From NCBI GenBank assembly GCA_001784875.1, contig MFSH01000023.1, positions 33,969 through 97,968 of the forward strand: 64,000 nucleotides of DNA, given 5' to 3'. Positions within the stretch are counted from its first letter, which is position 1, and each line of letters opens with the position of its first letter. The position numbers were made by a program, and so were the translations under genes. The notes beneath the pieces were generated by a model. That model saw only the letters and a program-made list of their open reading frames with translations. It was not told where the DNA came from and searched no databases. Positions 20,349 through 32,679 of this stretch are shown piece by piece. This DNA is from Candidatus Moranbacteria bacterium RIFOXYB1_FULL_43_19. Lineage in GTDB: Bacteria; Patescibacteriota; Minisyncoccia; Moranbacterales; UBA11712.

Positions 20349-21092
20349 ATGAAACTAACTTTTCTCGGGACAAACGGCTGGTATGACAATAAAATTGGAA
20401 ACACTGTGTGCAGCCTATTGGAAAGCGAAAAGTATTATATTATCTTTGATGCTGGAAATGGAATCTACAAACTACCGAGCTACATAAAATCAAAAAAACA
20501 CATTTTTCTCTTTTTGAGCCATTTGCACCTTGATCATATTTTTGGTTTTCATATTTTTCCCAAGTTCAAACTTAAAAATAAATTCAATGTTTTTTGTCCG
20601 AAAGGATTGAAAAAAGATTTGATGAAAATAATCGACCATCCCTACGCCATGCCATTTCGGGAGATGAAGCTGAAAACAAAAATAGAGGAACTGTCAAAAG
20701 ATTGCCGGGAACTTCCTTTTCCCGTCGAATGTCGAAAACTCTATCATATTGATCCATCTTTCGGATATAGGATAACTTTGGACGGCAAAACTGTGGCCTA
20801 TTGTTCCGATACCGGTGTATCAAAAAATTCAATCCAGCTTGCCCGAAACGCTGATGCGCTGATCCATGAATGCGCCGCCGTGCCCAAATTAGTCTCGGGG
20901 AAATGGGGGCACTCCAATCCGGAAGAAGCAGCCGGAATCGCCAAAAAAGCCGAGTGCAAGAAACTTTTTCTGACTCACTTTTCCGCAAATAAATATATGA
21001 CCTTAAAAGACCGCCGGCGGGCTGAGAAAGTAGCGAGGAAAATTTTCAAGAACACTATTGCGGCAAGAGACGGAATGGCCTTAAATGTTTGA
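20349..21092 (+). CDS. MBL-fold metallo-hydrolase (RNase Z/ElaC-like)
   Basis: LSHLHLDHIFG (HxHxDH) motif, downstream Asp/His ligands. Confidence 0.75.
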   Translation: MKLTFLGTNGWYDNKIGNTVCSLLESEKYYIIFDAGNGIYKLPSYIKSKKHIFLFLSHLHLDHIFGFHIFPKFKLKNKFNVFCPKGLKKDLMKIIDHPYAMPFREMKLKTKIEELSKDCRELPFPVECRKLYHIDPSFGYRITLDGKTVAYCSDTGVSKNSIQLARNADALIHECAAVPKLVSGKWGHSNPEEAAGIAKKAECKKLFLTHFSANKYMTLKDRRRAEKVARKIFKNTIAARDGMALNV

Positions 21093-25902: not shown

Positions 25903-26466
25903 TTAATTTTTCAATAGCTGGCTAAAATTTTTCCGGAGCTTTGTGATTTTTGGAGAGATATTGGTTTGGCAATATGGTTTTTCCGGATTGTTTGCAAAAT
26001 AATTTTGGTGATAGTCTTCTGCGGGATAAAAATTTTCAAGCCGTTTCACTTCGGTCACGATCTGGTTTTTGAAAATTTTTTCTTTTTCTAATTTTTCAAT
26101 GAATTTTTCCGCTTCATTTTTCTGCTTTTCGTCCGAATAAAGAATTATCGAGCGGTATTGCGTTCCTTCGTCGGTTCCCTGCCGGTTGAAAGTCGTCGGG
26201 TCGTGCATGGCGAAAAAAACAGAGAGTAAATCTTTGAATGCAATTTCTTTCGGATCATAGCCAATCTTCATTACTTCAGCATGGCCGGTTTTTCCGGAAC
26301 AAACTTTTTCATAGGTTGGATTAGGCATGGTGCCTCCAGCATATCCCGAAGTAACTTTGATGACCCCTTTTAATTTTGCAAGGATGGCCTCAAGGCACCA
26401 AAAACAGCCGCCGCCAAAGACAGCTTGGGAAAAATTTTGATTATTCTCCGTCGTCTGGCCCTTCAT
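25903..26466 (-). CDS. msrA: peptide methionine-S-sulfoxide reductase
   Basis: GGGCFWCLEAI active site, GYAGG; start ambiguous (overlaps msrB 3' end). Confidence 0.85.
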   Translation of the reverse strand: MKGQTTENNQNFSQAVFGGGCFWCLEAILAKLKGVIKVTSGYAGGTMPNPTYEKVCSGKTGHAEVMKIGYDPKEIAFKDLLSVFFAMHDPTTFNRQGTDEGTQYRSIILYSDEKQKNEAEKFIEKLEKEKIFKNQIVTEVKRLENFYPAEDYHQNYFANNPEKPYCQTNISPKITKLRKNFSQLLKN

Positions 26467-26860
26467 TTGTTTCGGGCACAAATTTCAAGGCAATTGAATT
26501 GATGCAGTATCTTTTTCCTGTCGGAGGCGGGCCGTCGCCAAATACATGGCCGAGATGCGATCCGCAGCGGGCGCAACGGACTTCTTTCCGGACCATTCCG
26601 CCGGAAGTGTCTTCGAAATATTCCACGTGATCTGGCGCGATAGGCTCAAAATAGCTTGGCCAGCCGGTGCCGGAATCAAACATATCTTTGTGGCGGAAAA
26701 GAACCAAATCGCAAGCGGCGCAATGATAGATTCCGTCCTCGTCTTTTCTCCAGGAACAGGTGAACGGAGCTTCCGTCCCGTATTGACGCATAACCCGGAA
26801 CTGCTCCGGAGTGAGAATTTCCTTCCACTCCTTTTCGGTTTTGTGTATTTTTTTAACCAT
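26441..26860 (-). CDS. msrB: peptide methionine-R-sulfoxide reductase
   Basis: CxxC...CxxC zinc site (CAACDL, CARCGSHLGHVF) and RYCINS catalytic Cys; start at MVKKIH. Confidence 0.85.
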   Translation of the reverse strand: MVKKIHKTEKEWKEILTPEQFRVMRQYGTEAPFTCSWRKDEDGIYHCAACDLVLFRHKDMFDSGTGWPSYFEPIAPDHVEYFEDTSGGMVRKEVRCARCGSHLGHVFGDGPPPTGKRYCINSIALKFVPETNEGPDDGE

Positions 26861-27062
26861 AAAGGTATTTTTTTCAAAAACGGACCCTGCGCGGCCCGTC
26901 CTTGAAATAAATTCGAGGTGATCACCCCAGCACCAATCCCAAATATATATTGTTTGTTTGACTCGCTCCAAACGTGAAGCGGCTTCGCCTGACTTTTTCG
27001 ATTTTATAAAATTTGCGCCGAGGATTGGTGCGGGGTTGCGCTTTGCGATATAATCGCAAAGC

Positions 27063-27257
27063 TTACATTTCGTCCTTCATTTTTTCTTTCATCATTTTCT
27101 TCATTTCCATCATCTCTTCGTCCGATTTTCCCTCCATCATATCCTTATGCATTTCCTTGGCGTGCATCATCATTTTGTCCATGACCTCTTCTTCTGTGGC
27201 GCCTTTGGCGACAAAGTTGTCGCTCATGCCCATGTCCTGGCAAGAAAGCGTTTTCAT
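27063..27257 (-). CDS. DUF1059-like small protein with extremely Met-rich C-terminal tail
   Basis: N-terminal LSCQDMGMSDNFVAKGATEEEVM matches DUF1059 pattern; 17/64 residues are Met (EEMMEMKKMMKEKMKDEM). Confidence 0.6.
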   Translation of the reverse strand: MKTLSCQDMGMSDNFVAKGATEEEVMDKMMMHAKEMHKDMMEGKSDEEMMEMKKMMKEKMKDEM

Positions 27258-27493: not shown

Positions 27494-28075
27494 TCAGATC
27501 ATGAAAAAAATACGGGCTAGCCAGTCACCGAATAAATTCAAAACAAGGACGTGAGTGACGAATCCGATGGAGACGGCAAGAGCGAATTTTTTGAAACTGA
27601 TTCCGGAGAGCCCGAAAGCTCCGCTTATGATGTCGATAGGGAAAATCGGGAAGATGTAAAGGAACAGAAGGAAATTTTCACGCCGGGAAATAAGATCCTC
27701 GTATTTCTTCAGTTTTTCTCCGCCGAATAATCTTTCCGCGATGGCGCGTCCGAATTTTCGGGAAAGCCAGAAAACAAGAAAAGATCCCAAAACATTTCCC
27801 GTATAAGTATACAAAGAACCATAAAAAGCGCCGAAAATGAAACCGGCAGAAATGGCGGGAATGAATCCGGGGAGCGGAGCCAGAACTACTTCGATTATGA
27901 TCGCGATGATGATGGCGAAAGGCGCAAAAATGCCAAAACTTCTGATAAGCTGCTCGAAACTTTCCCGGTCGCTTAATATGCCGAATTTATCCCTGAAGAT
28001 GATTAGAAAAACGATAAACAGCAAAAACGCCAAAACAATTGATATATCATACTTGTGTTTCGCGAAGAATTTCAT
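27494..28075 (-). CDS. DedA/SNARE-associated (TVP38/TMEM64) family membrane protein
   Basis: PLPGF..ISAGFIFG and GNVLGSFLVFWLSRKFGR DedA motifs. Confidence 0.75.
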   Translation of the reverse strand: MKFFAKHKYDISIVLAFLLFIVFLIIFRDKFGILSDRESFEQLIRSFGIFAPFAIIIAIIIEVVLAPLPGFIPAISAGFIFGAFYGSLYTYTGNVLGSFLVFWLSRKFGRAIAERLFGGEKLKKYEDLISRRENFLLFLYIFPIFPIDIISGAFGLSGISFKKFALAVSIGFVTHVLVLNLFGDWLARIFFMI

Positions 28076-28109: not shown

Positions 28110-28853
28110 ATGACACACGAAAAAAACGTTATTTCCGCCGCAATCCTCTTCGTGTTGATACTTATCGGAGCCGGCTTTTATTCTTCGAAAAAAGAATCTT
28201 CTCCAGCTGCGGGCTTAACTGATTTCAAAAATAGTGTCGGAGAAAAGGCTGAAAAATCCGAGCCAGCGCTTCCGGAAAAAATCATGCTCGAAGTCCCGTT
28301 CACTTCTCAATCGCCCCTGGGGAATTGGCAGGACGTCCGGGAACAAAACGGATGTGAGGAGGCTGCTCTTCTTATGGTGATTGCCTGGGCCAGGGGCGAA
28401 AGCATTTCTCCCGAAGCGGCTGCCAGGGAAATACAAAACATGTCAGACTACCACCTCAAAGCGCATGGGCATTTTCATGATTTGTCGAACGCCGACACTC
28501 TCCAGCTGCTCAACGAATATTTCCAATATTTCAAAGCGCGTCTTGTCGAAGACATCGGGACTGAAGACATAAAAAAAGAACTGGCCGCCGGCAAACTGGT
28601 GATCGTTCCGATAAACGGGGCAACAATAGGGAATCCAAATTATGAACCTCCTGGGCCGACCAACCACAAGATCGTGATCATCGGGTATGATGACGCCGCT
28701 CAGGAATTTGTCACTCATGATCCCGGAACCAGCCGGGGGAAGAGTTATCGATATGGATACGAAGTTCTCGAGAAATCTCTGGAAGATTATCCTACCGGGC
28801 TTCACGAAAAATTTCCAGAAAGAAAAACATCAATGATCGTAGTGGAAAAATAA
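28110..28853 (+). CDS. membrane-anchored C39-like (papain-fold, Peptidase_C39_2-like) putative peptidase
   Basis: VPFTSQSP..NGCEEAALLMV (Gln/Cys) and later VTHDPGT (His-Asp); paralog of 30208..30951. Confidence 0.55.
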   Translation: MTHEKNVISAAILFVLILIGAGFYSSKKESSPAAGLTDFKNSVGEKAEKSEPALPEKIMLEVPFTSQSPLGNWQDVREQNGCEEAALLMVIAWARGESISPEAAAREIQNMSDYHLKAHGHFHDLSNADTLQLLNEYFQYFKARLVEDIGTEDIKKELAAGKLVIVPINGATIGNPNYEPPGPTNHKIVIIGYDDAAQEFVTHDPGTSRGKSYRYGYEVLEKSLEDYPTGLHEKFPERKTSMIVVEK

Positions 28854-28878
28854 TATTTCTTAACAGAATAACGCTTGC

Positions 28879-30195
28879 ATGAAAAGAATGCTCAAAATTG
28901 TTCCGAAAGGGAGTGTTGTGCTTGCGGCAACAAGTTTTGCCTCGTATGTTTTGGGGCTGGCGCGGGACCATTTTTTTGCCCAGACGTTCGGAGCGTCACG
29001 AGCTCTTGACGCCTACAACGCGGCATTTCTTTTTCCCGACCTATTGTTCAATATTCTCATCGCGAGCGGGATTGCCGCGGCTTTTGTTCCGATTCTAACC
29101 AGCCTCCTGCGGTCCGACAAAGCCAAAGCGGAAGAATATGTCAATTCAGTCATCACTTCCGCCACTGGGACGATGCTTACGATGGCGATGCTCATCGTCA
29201 TTTTCGCGGGACCTGTCAGCGCAGTTATCGCGCCTGGCTTTGATCTTCAGGACAGGCAGCTCACAGTGAAAATTCTCCGTGTTCTCGCTTTTTCTCCCAT
29301 TTTTTTCGCGGCTTCGAATGCGCTCGGTGCGATGCTGATCACAAAAAGAAGATTTCTTTTCTACGGCCTTTCGCCGGTTCTCTATAATCTCGGGATAATC
29401 GCCGGCACGCTGCTTCTTGCTCCCCGTTTTGGGATAATGGGCGTGGCAGTCGGGACACTTTTTGGAGCGGCCTTGCATCTTTTGGTGAGAATAGCCGACG
29501 TCTGGCGGAGCGGCTTCCGTTTCAAAGCAGTTCTTGCCTTTCGCACTCCCGAATTTCGCAAAACTATCAGTCTTATGATTCCGAAAATGTTCGGGCACCC
29601 GATTGAACTGGCGACTTTTTGGGGTTTCACGGCCATTGCTTCCGCCTTGGCGGCTGGTTCGGTGGCGGTGATCAGTTTTGCCCGCAACTTTCAGAGTGTT
29701 CCCATCAGTCTCATCGGCATAACCATCGCGACGACCAGTTTTCCTCTTTTGGCAGGGGCGGCCAGCGAAAAAACGAGGGAAATTTTTTGGAAGATACTCA
29801 AAAGATCATCGCTTTTGATTTTTTCCGGAAGCTTTCTGGCTGCCATAGCGATTTATATTATTCGCGTGCCTCTCATCAGAATATTCCTTGGCGGCGGAGA
29901 ATTTCAATCCAACGACGTAGATCGGACTGCCGCCGCGCTGGGGATGTTTTGCTTGAGCATTCCGACCGAAGCCCTCGTCCATCTATTAGCAAGAGCTTTC
30001 TACGCGACAAAAAACACGACCATTCCAGTCGCGGTGAGCGTCTTGGGAATCATCATTGCCATTCCCGGGGGATATTTTTTGAGCCAGTCTTGGGGAATTG
30101 TCGCCCTGCCTTTCGCTTTTTTTCTCGGCAGCGCGGCGGAACTTCTGATCCTTGGAATACTTCTGCCGCTTCGCGTGCGAAAGATTTTTGCCTGA
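28879..30195 (+). CDS. murJ: lipid II flippase MurJ (MviN)
   Basis: 14-TM MOP superfamily; N-terminal SFASYVLGLARDHFFAQTFGASRALDAYNAAFLFPDLLFNI typical MurJ. Confidence 0.85.
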   Translation: MKRMLKIVPKGSVVLAATSFASYVLGLARDHFFAQTFGASRALDAYNAAFLFPDLLFNILIASGIAAAFVPILTSLLRSDKAKAEEYVNSVITSATGTMLTMAMLIVIFAGPVSAVIAPGFDLQDRQLTVKILRVLAFSPIFFAASNALGAMLITKRRFLFYGLSPVLYNLGIIAGTLLLAPRFGIMGVAVGTLFGAALHLLVRIADVWRSGFRFKAVLAFRTPEFRKTISLMIPKMFGHPIELATFWGFTAIASALAAGSVAVISFARNFQSVPISLIGITIATTSFPLLAGAASEKTREIFWKILKRSSLLIFSGSFLAAIAIYIIRVPLIRIFLGGGEFQSNDVDRTAAALGMFCLSIPTEALVHLLARAFYATKNTTIPVAVSVLGIIIAIPGGYFLSQSWGIVALPFAFFLGSAAELLILGILLPLRVRKIFA

Positions 30196-30207
30196 TGTAA
30201 AAAATTC

Positions 30208-30951
30208 TCAGCCGATGATGATCATAACTTTTCTTCCTGTGTCCACATTTCCTCCGTTCCAGTCGTGAACGGCGTTCAGCAGCACCTCCGGTTTATAAAC
30301 ATAATCAGCGCCTTTCCTGGTTCCCGGATCGTTGGTGATCAAGTTGCCGCTTTTCGTGTAGCCTTTTACGACCAGCATATGGTATAGCGGGCCGGGCTGG
30401 CGGTAGTTGGGGTTTCCAATCTCTCTTCCGGCCAGGGGCAATATCACGGCCTTTCCTTCCGCCAAGGCCTTTTTTATTTCTTCGGAGTTGGGATCAGAAA
30501 TAGTTTTCACGTTCGCGAGTCCGAAATAATCCCGCAGAATGAGAGCCGTTTCTTCAATGTTCGTATCTTCATAATAGCCGAATTTTGTTTCTTCGAAATT
30601 TTTGATGGCGAGCATTTTTGCGTCCGCATCATCGGGGCCCGCGATGACCTTGCCTTTGACATAGCTGGCCGCCATCAGGACAGAAGCCTCTTCGCAAAAT
30701 TGCTGGTAAGGCAAATCCCAATTTTGGTGCGGAGCTTGGGAAGTGAATGGAATGGCAAGATTCACTTCAGCAGGCAGAGCTGCCTCCGGTTCGGACGGAG
30801 CCTGGTTTTGAGCCTGGGATGAAGCGGTGGAATTATAGGATTGAGCCGGAGGCATAGGAATTGCCTCTGGCTTTTTTTTAGACATCACAAAAAATATTCC
30901 AGCCAAAAACGGGAACGCGATCAGGATCAAAGTTATTCGGAGTCTTCGCAT
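30208..30951 (-). CDS. secreted C39-like putative peptidase, paralog of 28110..28853
   Basis: IPFTSQAPHQNW..QQFCEEASVLMA and ITNDPGT; same length (247 aa), convergent with murJ. Confidence 0.55.
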   Translation of the reverse strand: MRRLRITLILIAFPFLAGIFFVMSKKKPEAIPMPPAQSYNSTASSQAQNQAPSEPEAALPAEVNLAIPFTSQAPHQNWDLPYQQFCEEASVLMAASYVKGKVIAGPDDADAKMLAIKNFEETKFGYYEDTNIEETALILRDYFGLANVKTISDPNSEEIKKALAEGKAVILPLAGREIGNPNYRQPGPLYHMLVVKGYTKSGNLITNDPGTRKGADYVYKPEVLLNAVHDWNGGNVDTGRKVMIIIG

Positions 30952-31728: not shown

Positions 31729-32679
31729 TTGGCAAGCACAGATATTATCGCTTGGATCACGGGCGGCTACGGGAAATATTTTCTGTCCCCATGGTGTATT
31801 GTTATTGTATGGATGTATAAGCTTTCAACCATTCAGATGAATGAGGAAAATCAAAAAAATCAAGGTCAGTCGGCTGACAAGGGAAATTCCGGGATAAAAA
31901 ATTACGGGTGGCTCGCCGCGGCTGTAATAATCGCCGCAATTCTTGGCGGTTATTTCATTTTTCGCAATGACATCCGGAACATGGATCAACTGCCGGACAA
32001 TGTCACGCTCAAAAATGAAACGACGGGCGAGACGGAAACAATCATTTTTGAAAATCCGAAAAAATCCGCGCATTACGAAGGCAATACCCCTTCTCACGGC
32101 GATAAACTTGCCGGAGTTCCGATCAACGTGGTGATTGATTTTAATTTTGATCTCGCGTCTCCTTCGGCGATATCGGTCAAAATGAACGGAAAAGAATACG
32201 GAATCGGAGAAACGATAATTGACACGAACAAATTGTCTATGCGAAAAAAAATGGATCCCGATTCTCCGGACGGTCTCTATGACGTGGCCCATAACGCCTG
32301 TTGGCCTGACGGATCATGCCATGACGGGAAATTCCAGTTTGCGATCGACAGGTCAGGCGCCGGAGATTTTGCGGATCTTCGCGGGCAAAAAGAGGTGATG
32401 ATAAAAATGAAAAATATCGCTTTCGAACCGGGAGAAATCATCATCAGCCCGGGGACCGTCGTGACTTGGGTGCAGGAAGACGACGCGGAGCATTTCGTGA
32501 ACACGGAAACACATCCGGCCCATACCTATTTTCCGGCACAAAATTCCCGCGGTCTCAAGCTCGGCGACACTTTCTCGACGACATTTGAAAAGCCGGGAAT
32601 ATATCCCTACCATTGCAGCGCCCACGCGAGTGTCATGACCGGAACGATTCTGGTGATCTCCCCCGAAGTCGAAGTTTAG
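31729..32679 (+). CDS. membrane-anchored protein with C-terminal cupredoxin (plastocyanin/azurin-like) domain
   Basis: Type-1 Cu ligands H (ETHPAH)...YHCSAHASVM (C-x2-H-x3-M); N-terminal TM; start may be internal (MNEEN at 31837). Confidence 0.7.
   Translation: MASTDIIAWITGGYGKYFLSPWCIVIVWMYKLSTIQMNEENQKNQGQSADKGNSGIKNYGWLAAAVIIAAILGGYFIFRNDIRNMDQLPDNVTLKNETTGETETIIFENPKKSAHYEGNTPSHGDKLAGVPINVVIDFNFDLASPSAISVKMNGKEYGIGETIIDTNKLSMRKKMDPDSPDGLYDVAHNACWPDGSCHDGKFQFAIDRSGAGDFADLRGQKEVMIKMKNIAFEPGEIIISPGTVVTWVQEDDAEHFVNTETHPAHTYFPAQNSRGLKLGDTFSTTFEKPGIYPYHCSAHASVMTGTILVISPEVEV

Follow-up and report, generated by a model that had tools for sequence, protein, structure and literature searches.

Patescibacteria account for a large share of bacterial diversity and make peptidoglycan, nearly all of them are uncultured, and their wall assembly is known from gene lists only. 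A 64,000-nucleotide stretch of the genome of Candidatus Moranbacteria bacterium RIFOXYB1_FULL_43_19 (assembly GCA_001784875.1, contig MFSH01000023.1; the whole stretch analysed is referred to as the window) contains murJ, a gene of the lipid II flippase family, between two genes for membrane-anchored PF13529 cysteine peptidases. The locus raises the question of whether the flippase and the peptidases belong together and, if so, what the peptidases act on. Paralog A, which defines the A-type orthogroup, occupies positions 28110–28853 on the plus strand. The murJ gene (MOP superfamily, PF03023; 438 amino acids (aa)) follows on the same strand at 28879–30195, and 25 nt of spacer (28854–28878) lie between its start codon and the stop of A. 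Paralog B, which defines the B-type orthogroup, lies convergent to murJ on the minus strand at 30208–30951, and the stop codons of the two genes are 12 nt apart (30196–30207). The two open reading frames (ORFs) of 247 aa each, with murJ between them, are as described in the original prediction for this DNA. B is oriented tail to tail with murJ, and A is encoded on the same strand as murJ.

The murJ–B gene pair

In three B-type loci that share 58–65% identity with B and have three different flanking contexts, murJ is convergent with the peptidase gene and located immediately downstream of it. A metagenome scan yielded 80 B-type loci with 44–84% identity, which were collapsed at 90% identity into 64 clusters, and the synteny was counted in the 43 clusters with at least 1.5 kb of downstream DNA. 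A convergent murJ is found downstream of the B-type gene in 29 of these 43 non-redundant loci. It is directly adjacent in 23 loci and is parted from the B-type gene by unrelated inserts (RNA ligase, PaaX/Cas2-like and hypothetical genes) in six. Neighbour clustering over all 80 loci identifies MurJ in 45, always on the opposite strand, and any other neighbour in no more than nine. The pairing is also observed from the murJ side. Five MurJ homologs with 62–79% identity, picked only for their long contigs, were inspected, and a PF13529 gene that is B-type by score lies directly downstream of murJ in all five (four convergent and one co-directional).

The 33 adjacent murJ–B pairs are tightly packed, with stop-to-stop distances from −26 to +13 nt (median −4 nt) and 20 overlaps. 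The adjacency persists down to ∼44–50% peptidase identity, and loci L085, L087, L089 and L171–L175 have different genes on the outer flanks. The conserved unit is the murJ gene together with the B-type peptidase gene, and it extends across Parcubacteria-type Patescibacteria. Synteny with murJ, proposed earlier as a check, is thus found for paralog B from both sides of the pair; the label "lineage-specific" that the coupling had been given is too narrow, because the B–murJ pair spans many Parcubacteria-type lineages. No description of a C39-type peptidase pairing with MurJ was found in the literature searched, and the pairing is apparently unreported before. At locus L171 (5328–6081, minus strand), two ORFs of 131 and 122 aa take the place of an intact B-type gene downstream of murJ and jointly span its full length; the split reflects either a frameshift or pseudogene formation or an assembly error.

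The genes downstream of B in the 14 murJ-less loci are diverse and include MacB/FtsX, an ABC ATPase, TsaD, XseA and a P-type ATPase. The place of murJ is taken in L141 by genes for a Mur ligase and a Wzy_C protein. Hidden flippases were considered at such loci and rejected, as the Pfam matches of the ∼420-aa convergent ORFs are MacB/FtsX and Mur ligase instead.

Paralog A has no comparable link to murJ. The A-type scan used one genome per species and covered the best 80 of at least 584 related stretches (35–55% identity) with 10 kb on either side. In these 80 loci, murJ is absent near the A-type gene at E ≤ 1e-5 and again, in 0 of 80, at E ≤ 1e-3; the relaxed threshold disposes of the possibility that murJ had been overlooked through divergence. 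Neighbour clustering reveals no dominant partner of the A-type gene, and the commonest neighbour, Peptidase_M23, occurs in 11 of 80 loci at variable positions. The A–murJ–B order is kept in relatives with 84–87% identity (L081, L092 and L093). In relatives with 62% and 64% identity, A stands beside the same GSDH neighbour as in the window, and in one of them (L083) the VTT gene described below is present too; murJ and B are absent there. Adjacency of A and murJ is limited to L081, L092 and L093, plus an A-like gene in L173. The bracket formed by two paralogs around murJ, which the original prediction treated as the conserved unit, is local to this lineage. A would have become the upstream neighbour of murJ only in this genus-level lineage, via local rearrangement. 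Its predicted chemistry and topology match those of B, and it is probably a second enzyme of wall remodelling.

An independent bracket around murJ is observed in a Falkowbacteria genome (GCA_026396805.1; L173, 3242–6201), in an orientation that differs from that in the window. An A-like paralog with 43% identity to A is divergent and upstream of murJ, and a B-type gene is convergent with a 4-nt overlap. A Peptidase_M23 gene is located ∼1 kb beyond this bracket.

Family, fold and predicted orientation of the two peptidases

Paralogs A and B align over 231 residues with 36% identity (E 8e-45). Both belong to Peptidase_C39_2 (PF13529), as had been suggested, and exceed its gathering threshold of 24 bits. 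A matches model positions 1–142 of 143 with 51.6 bits (E 1.9e-13), and B matches positions 2–142 of 143 with 35.8 bits (E 1.4e-8). The Gln/Cys/His arrangement and the shared motifs of the original prediction are genuine, and an Asp residue is added to them. Residues Q67, C82, H186 and D204 of A (codons 28308–28310, 28353–28355, 28665–28667 and 28719–28721, plus strand) and Q72, C86, H191 and D208 of B (codons 30736–30738, 30694–30696, 30379–30381 and 30328–30330, minus strand) are invariant in a 28-sequence alignment of each type. The profiles of the two types align end to end with matched catalytic columns (hhalign E 2.5e-77). Both subfamilies are specific to the candidate phyla radiation (CPR) and carry GCEEA around the nucleophile and an NPNY/DPGT signature. 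The more specific designation "BtrH-like" is not sustained, since BtrH_N (PF14399) matches only the C-terminal third of A, with 18.6 bits (E 0.0024) against a cutoff of 29.7, and does not match B. The canonical Peptidase_C39 family (PF03412) matches neither protein at E ≤ 0.1. Some A-type homologs of 387–389 aa (P0042 and P0052) are fused to a DUF192 domain (PF02643), which might hint at function.

For the catalytic domain, the AlphaFold models have high confidence, with mean predicted local distance difference test (pLDDT) values of 88.6 and 85.2. The Cys residue is placed at the N-terminus of the central helix (residues 82–95 in A and 86–99 in B), the His residue on a β-strand (residues 186–194 in A and 190–198 in B) and the Asp residue just past the next strand, which is the papain arrangement. 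The Cys and His residues of both models fit the C39 triad in order and in secondary-structure placement, in agreement with the original prediction. Structural comparison gave values of 15.3/15.8 with the Bacillus anthracis C39-like peptidase 3ERV, 15.1/16.2 with the pseudomurein endoisopeptidase PeiR, 14.7/14.9 with the phytochelatin-synthase-like protein Alr0975 and 14.6/14.3 with the leader-peptidase domain of ComA, and Foldseek returned the same top matches. The modelled fold of A and B is papain-like (clan CA), with significant similarity to solved clan-CA enzymes. Sequence and model together predict that A and B are catalytically intact Cys-His-Asp hydrolases of the papain fold.

Each protein begins with a ∼19-residue hydrophobic helix, followed by a ∼30-residue disordered linker. 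The hydrophobic anchors comprise residues 7–25 of A (28128–28184, plus strand) and residues 6–24 of B (30880–30936, minus strand), consistent with the N-terminal anchoring originally proposed. An N-in/C-out topology is favoured by the positive-inside rule for 22 of 25 sequences of the A-type and for 24 of 26 of the B-type. The catalytic domains of A and B are predicted to reside on the outer face of the membrane, because a transmembrane (TM) helix and a positive-inside bias are found across both families.

By sequence, A and B represent two anciently diverged and widespread orthogroups. Every locus of the B set scores 217–438 bits with B versus 93–153 bits with A, and the loci of the A set score 178–237 bits with A. 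The closest homologs bear source names such as Parcubacteria, Moranbacteria, Yanofskybacteria, Shapirobacteria and similar. A recent local duplication of A and B is ruled out by their 36% identity together with closer orthologs, at 45–87% identity, in many lineages. For annotation, two orthogroups that databases merge as "C39 family peptidase" are hereby separated.

The 64-kb window contains no further paralog of A or B by tblastn with both proteins. An ORF of 247 aa at 20349–21092, considered as a third paralog on account of its length, is unrelated and encodes a metallo-beta-lactamase-like sequence. Additional PF13529 genes occur elsewhere. A third, more divergent type (E 2e-21 to Pfam, with no significant BLAST match to A or B) precedes the B-type gene, in the same orientation, in nine of the 80 B-type loci (L141, 4930–5859, plus strand; also L107, L112, L121, L122, L124, L125, L137 and L153) and is directly adjacent in seven of the nine. 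Paralogs of the family therefore tend to cluster. In three A-type loci (L039, 9019–9576; L046, 9145–9696; L079, 4868–5431), a second PF13529 gene with ∼100 bits to A or B is located directly upstream in divergent orientation, and murJ is absent.

Candidate substrate and alternative explanations

These enzymes may act on the peptides of peptidoglycan or lipid II, a reading to which a probability of about 0.5 is given. The signal-anchor and the ∼30-residue disordered linker would tether A and B to the cytoplasmic membrane on its outer face. Near the membrane, the B-type enzyme would trim or cleave stem peptides or cross-links, with peptidoglycan, or lipid II emerging from MurJ, supplying the peptide. 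Such a role would resemble that of other cysteine cell-wall peptidases of clan CA, namely NlpC/P60, CHAP, the C39_2 domains of endolysins and the Pei isopeptidases. A wall or lipid II peptide is suggested as the substrate by the pairing of the B gene with a lipid II flippase gene, and B may be physically or functionally coupled to MurJ. The nearest structures, which include the wall isopeptidase PeiR and 3ERV, point in the same direction, as do the occasional wall-related neighbours (the Mur ligase and Wzy_C genes of L141, and Peptidase_M23). A further argument for a wall peptide is that PF13529 is catalogued among the catalytic domains of endolysins (PMC8223927; bioRxiv 10.64898/2026.04.25.720813). 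The Pei enzymes cleave the Ala-ε-Lys bond of pseudomurein (PMC4592898), and 3ERV is the template by which the cysteine-protease domain N5 of mycobacteriophage LysA was identified (PMC3314691). An outward-facing B-type peptidase would be a candidate for a missing wall-processing enzyme that is concrete and cheaply testable.

A and B differ from each of these relatives. Identity to 3ERV, a putative C39-like peptidase of PF13529 without an assigned function, is 19–26%, and A and B are set apart from it by the signal-anchor, GCEEA and NPNY/DPGT. PeiW, PeiP and PeiR (MEROPS C71; PDB 8Z4H) share 15–19% identity with A and B; these are lytic enzymes from viruses of methanogens and carry pseudomurein-binding repeats, whereas A and B have a membrane anchor and, in the case of B, a flippase link. 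The likeness to NlpC/P60, CHAP and LysA N5 is that of extracytoplasmic Cys-His hydrolases acting on peptidoglycan peptides, which for A and B is predicted. Unlike the endolysin domains, A and B are chromosomal, single-domain, membrane-anchored proteins without wall-binding domains. Alr0975 (C83), a prokaryotic phytochelatin-synthase-like protein, is among the best structural matches of both.

Several observations weigh against a wall-peptide substrate. The papain/C39 fold supports many chemistries, exemplified by Alr0975 on glutathione and ComA on leader peptides. Neither orthogroup has a characterised member, the searches found no direct homology of A or B to a characterised peptidoglycan enzyme, and neither single-sequence nor profile searches detected a sequence-level relative of A or B in the PDB. 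In tblastn comparisons with annotated phage lysins, B has no match, and A has one weak match (E 1e-4) to a "putative carboxypeptidase" and one to a PHROG without assigned function. The link to endolysins therefore exists only at the level of the Pfam family and the fold. An archaeal C39-like protein has been reported to be a glycosidase (PMC13642728). On the genomic side, murJ is absent downstream of the B-type gene in 14 of the 43 loci, the convergent orientation of murJ and B means that they are not co-transcribed, and their abutting or overlapping 3′ ends could by themselves slow the separation of the two genes.

This last point leads to a neutral or structural linkage, in which abutting 3′ ends and slow rearrangement in streamlined genomes keep the pair together and the peptidase has no relation to lipid II or peptidoglycan; B could then serve in general extracytoplasmic housekeeping or in nutrient scavenging, for example. 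The short stop-to-stop distances, with 20 of 33 pairs overlapping, are in line with such a linkage, and the convergent genes are outside any operon, so that the usual argument from co-transcription does not apply. The loss of adjacency in those 14 loci and the unrelated inserts between murJ and B in six others, with no apparent harm, also fit. The overlap, however, mostly involves the stop codons only, and separation would therefore be cheap. Both outer flanks are highly variable, yet murJ is kept in 45 of 80 loci compared with at most nine for any other gene. The pair is retained down to the lowest peptidase identities given above and is found in five of five loci approached from murJ, and its orientation is preserved even where genes have been inserted between the two partners. 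Neutral linkage is consequently regarded as rather unlikely.

Two other explanations assign the enzymes a different substrate. In one, the anchored enzymes cleave secreted or surface proteins (pilins, S-layer proteins or bacteriocin-like peptides) or attach them to lipid II or the wall in a sortase-like manner. A published CPR genome was interpreted as encoding a secreted C39 peptidase for bacteriocin leaders (PMC7143001), the fold resembles the domains of ComA and of peptidase-containing ATP-binding cassette (ABC) transporters (PCATs), and a Cys-His enzyme at the site where lipid II emerges would be well placed for a sortase-like reaction. The canonical C39 domains of PCATs and ComA (PF03412), however, are cytoplasmic N-terminal parts of ABC exporters, whereas A and B are standalone, are predicted to face outward and match PF13529 rather than PF03412. 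No ABC transporter, double-glycine peptide or substrate gene is a conserved neighbour in the 160 loci. Protein processing is thus judged improbable, and annotations should not read A and B as bacteriocin-leader peptidases. In the other explanation, the enzyme is a lysin by which an episymbiont attacks the wall of its host (peptidoglycan or pseudomurein) at the contact site to gain nutrients or access. PF13529 occurs in endolysins (PMC8223927), PeiR is structurally similar, and one report describes some Patescibacteria as parasites of methanogens (PMC10936435). A ∼30-residue linker on a membrane anchor would nevertheless be unlikely to reach past the cell's own wall, the gene with which the pairing is conserved is murJ of the cell itself and not one for secretion or attachment, and both orthogroups are found in lineages from many habitats. 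A host-directed lysin is accordingly considered very unlikely.

The MurJ homolog, transcript ends and neighbouring genes

The window gene is clearly of the MurJ family as judged from profile scores. The product scores 233.9 bits with PF03023 (cutoff 27.4) and 235.3 bits with the TIGR01695 equivalog model, 0.25 bits below the cutoff of 235.55, and phmmer aligns it with solved MurJ structures at E 4e-32. The alignment reaches only to about residue 394 of the 511 in Escherichia coli MurJ, and hydropathy indicates only one more TM segment after that point; the protein therefore has ∼12 TM helices and lacks TM13–14. Its short length is typical, as all 120 listed MurJ homologs have 417–471 aa except two that are apparently truncated (354 and 382 aa). 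According to published work, TM13–14 occur only in MurJ homologs and form a lipid-tail groove, and R18, R24 and R270 are an essential triad of MurJ (bioRxiv 10.64898/2026.06.21.733627; PMC9973255). The window MurJ departs from this 14-TM architecture with its TM13–14 groove and R18-R24-R270 triad. Compared with the solved MurJ proteins of E. coli, T. africanus and S. aureus, it retains R29-D30 as the equivalent of E. coli R24-D25 and differs in its 438-aa length, its ∼12 TM helices, a Tyr residue at the R18 position and a one-residue shift of the R270 equivalent. In 15 clade members, Y23 (28945–28947, plus strand), which corresponds to R18, is conserved to at least 90%. R29, F57 (29047–29049, plus strand; equivalent to R52) and R269 (29683–29685, plus strand; one position earlier than R270) are invariant in the same members. 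In S. aureus MurJ, the positions of the triad residues are plastic (bioRxiv 10.64898/2026.06.21.733627), and flippase function is therefore still possible for the window MurJ. If the short MurJ still flips lipid II, current mechanistic models of MurJ are constrained.

A more specific version of the wall-peptide reading would make the B-type enzyme an obligate extracytoplasmic partner of the minimal 12-TM MurJ. It would act on lipid II at the flippase exit, either by editing the stem peptide before polymerisation or by sortase-like transpeptidation with lipid II as the acceptor, and the single TM helix of B might replace the missing TM13–14 lipid-tail groove. This proposal is speculative and carries low odds; if true, it would reveal a previously unknown flippase-coupled step of wall assembly in a major bacterial radiation.

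A and murJ are probably co-transcribed, since they are on the same strand only 25 nt apart. The same spacing arrangement is present in the 84–87% relatives L081 and L092, and A–murJ is a probable transcription unit in this lineage. At the other end of murJ, the 12 nt that separate its stop codon from that of B provide no space for a terminator, and a shared bidirectional terminator is ruled out for the same reason. The two transcripts must therefore overlap at their 3′ ends or stop within the opposite gene, and such an overlap may leave room for antisense or interference effects between murJ and B. A strong terminator-like hairpin with a 12-bp stem and a T-run is located at 30843–30873 on the plus (murJ) strand, within the linker-encoding part of B, where the T-run corresponds to KKK codons of B. 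A weaker terminator-like hairpin lies within the 3′-terminal part of murJ, at 30033–30015 on the minus (B) strand. Each intragenic hairpin could terminate the transcript of the opposite gene after an antisense overlap. Terminator-like sites number eight in the region versus 6.3 in shuffled sequence, with no excess over chance. An Rfam scan of the 64-kb window identified no RNA family at threshold.

A gene for a DedA/VTT-domain membrane protein (PF09335, 77.1 bits) is located at 27494–28075 on the minus strand, divergent from A. The VTT gene is next to A–murJ in L081, near A in L083 and directly beside murJ in L085 and L086; in L085, the same DedA/VTT gene is the direct divergent neighbour of murJ. 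It was considered as a third conserved member of the locus and rejected, as it accompanies the genes in close relatives only and is absent from L087, L089 and L171–L175. DedA-family proteins are implicated in undecaprenyl-phosphate recycling. The VTT gene and murJ may form a small lipid-carrier cluster.

Further upstream on the minus strand (25903–26971 and 27063–27257), the msrA (PMSR) and msrB (SelR) ORFs overlap by ∼40 nt as listed, and a DUF1059 gene comes after them. In the close relative L081, genes for PMSR (msrA) and DUF1059 again lie close to the peptidase genes, and in L082 a PMSR gene does so. Beyond B, the plus-strand gene at 31729–32679 encodes a 316-aa protein with an N-terminal hydrophobic segment, a CopC domain and a cupredoxin domain of the plastocyanin/azurin type, a domain composition that suggests an extracytoplasmic copper-handling protein in a reduced genome.

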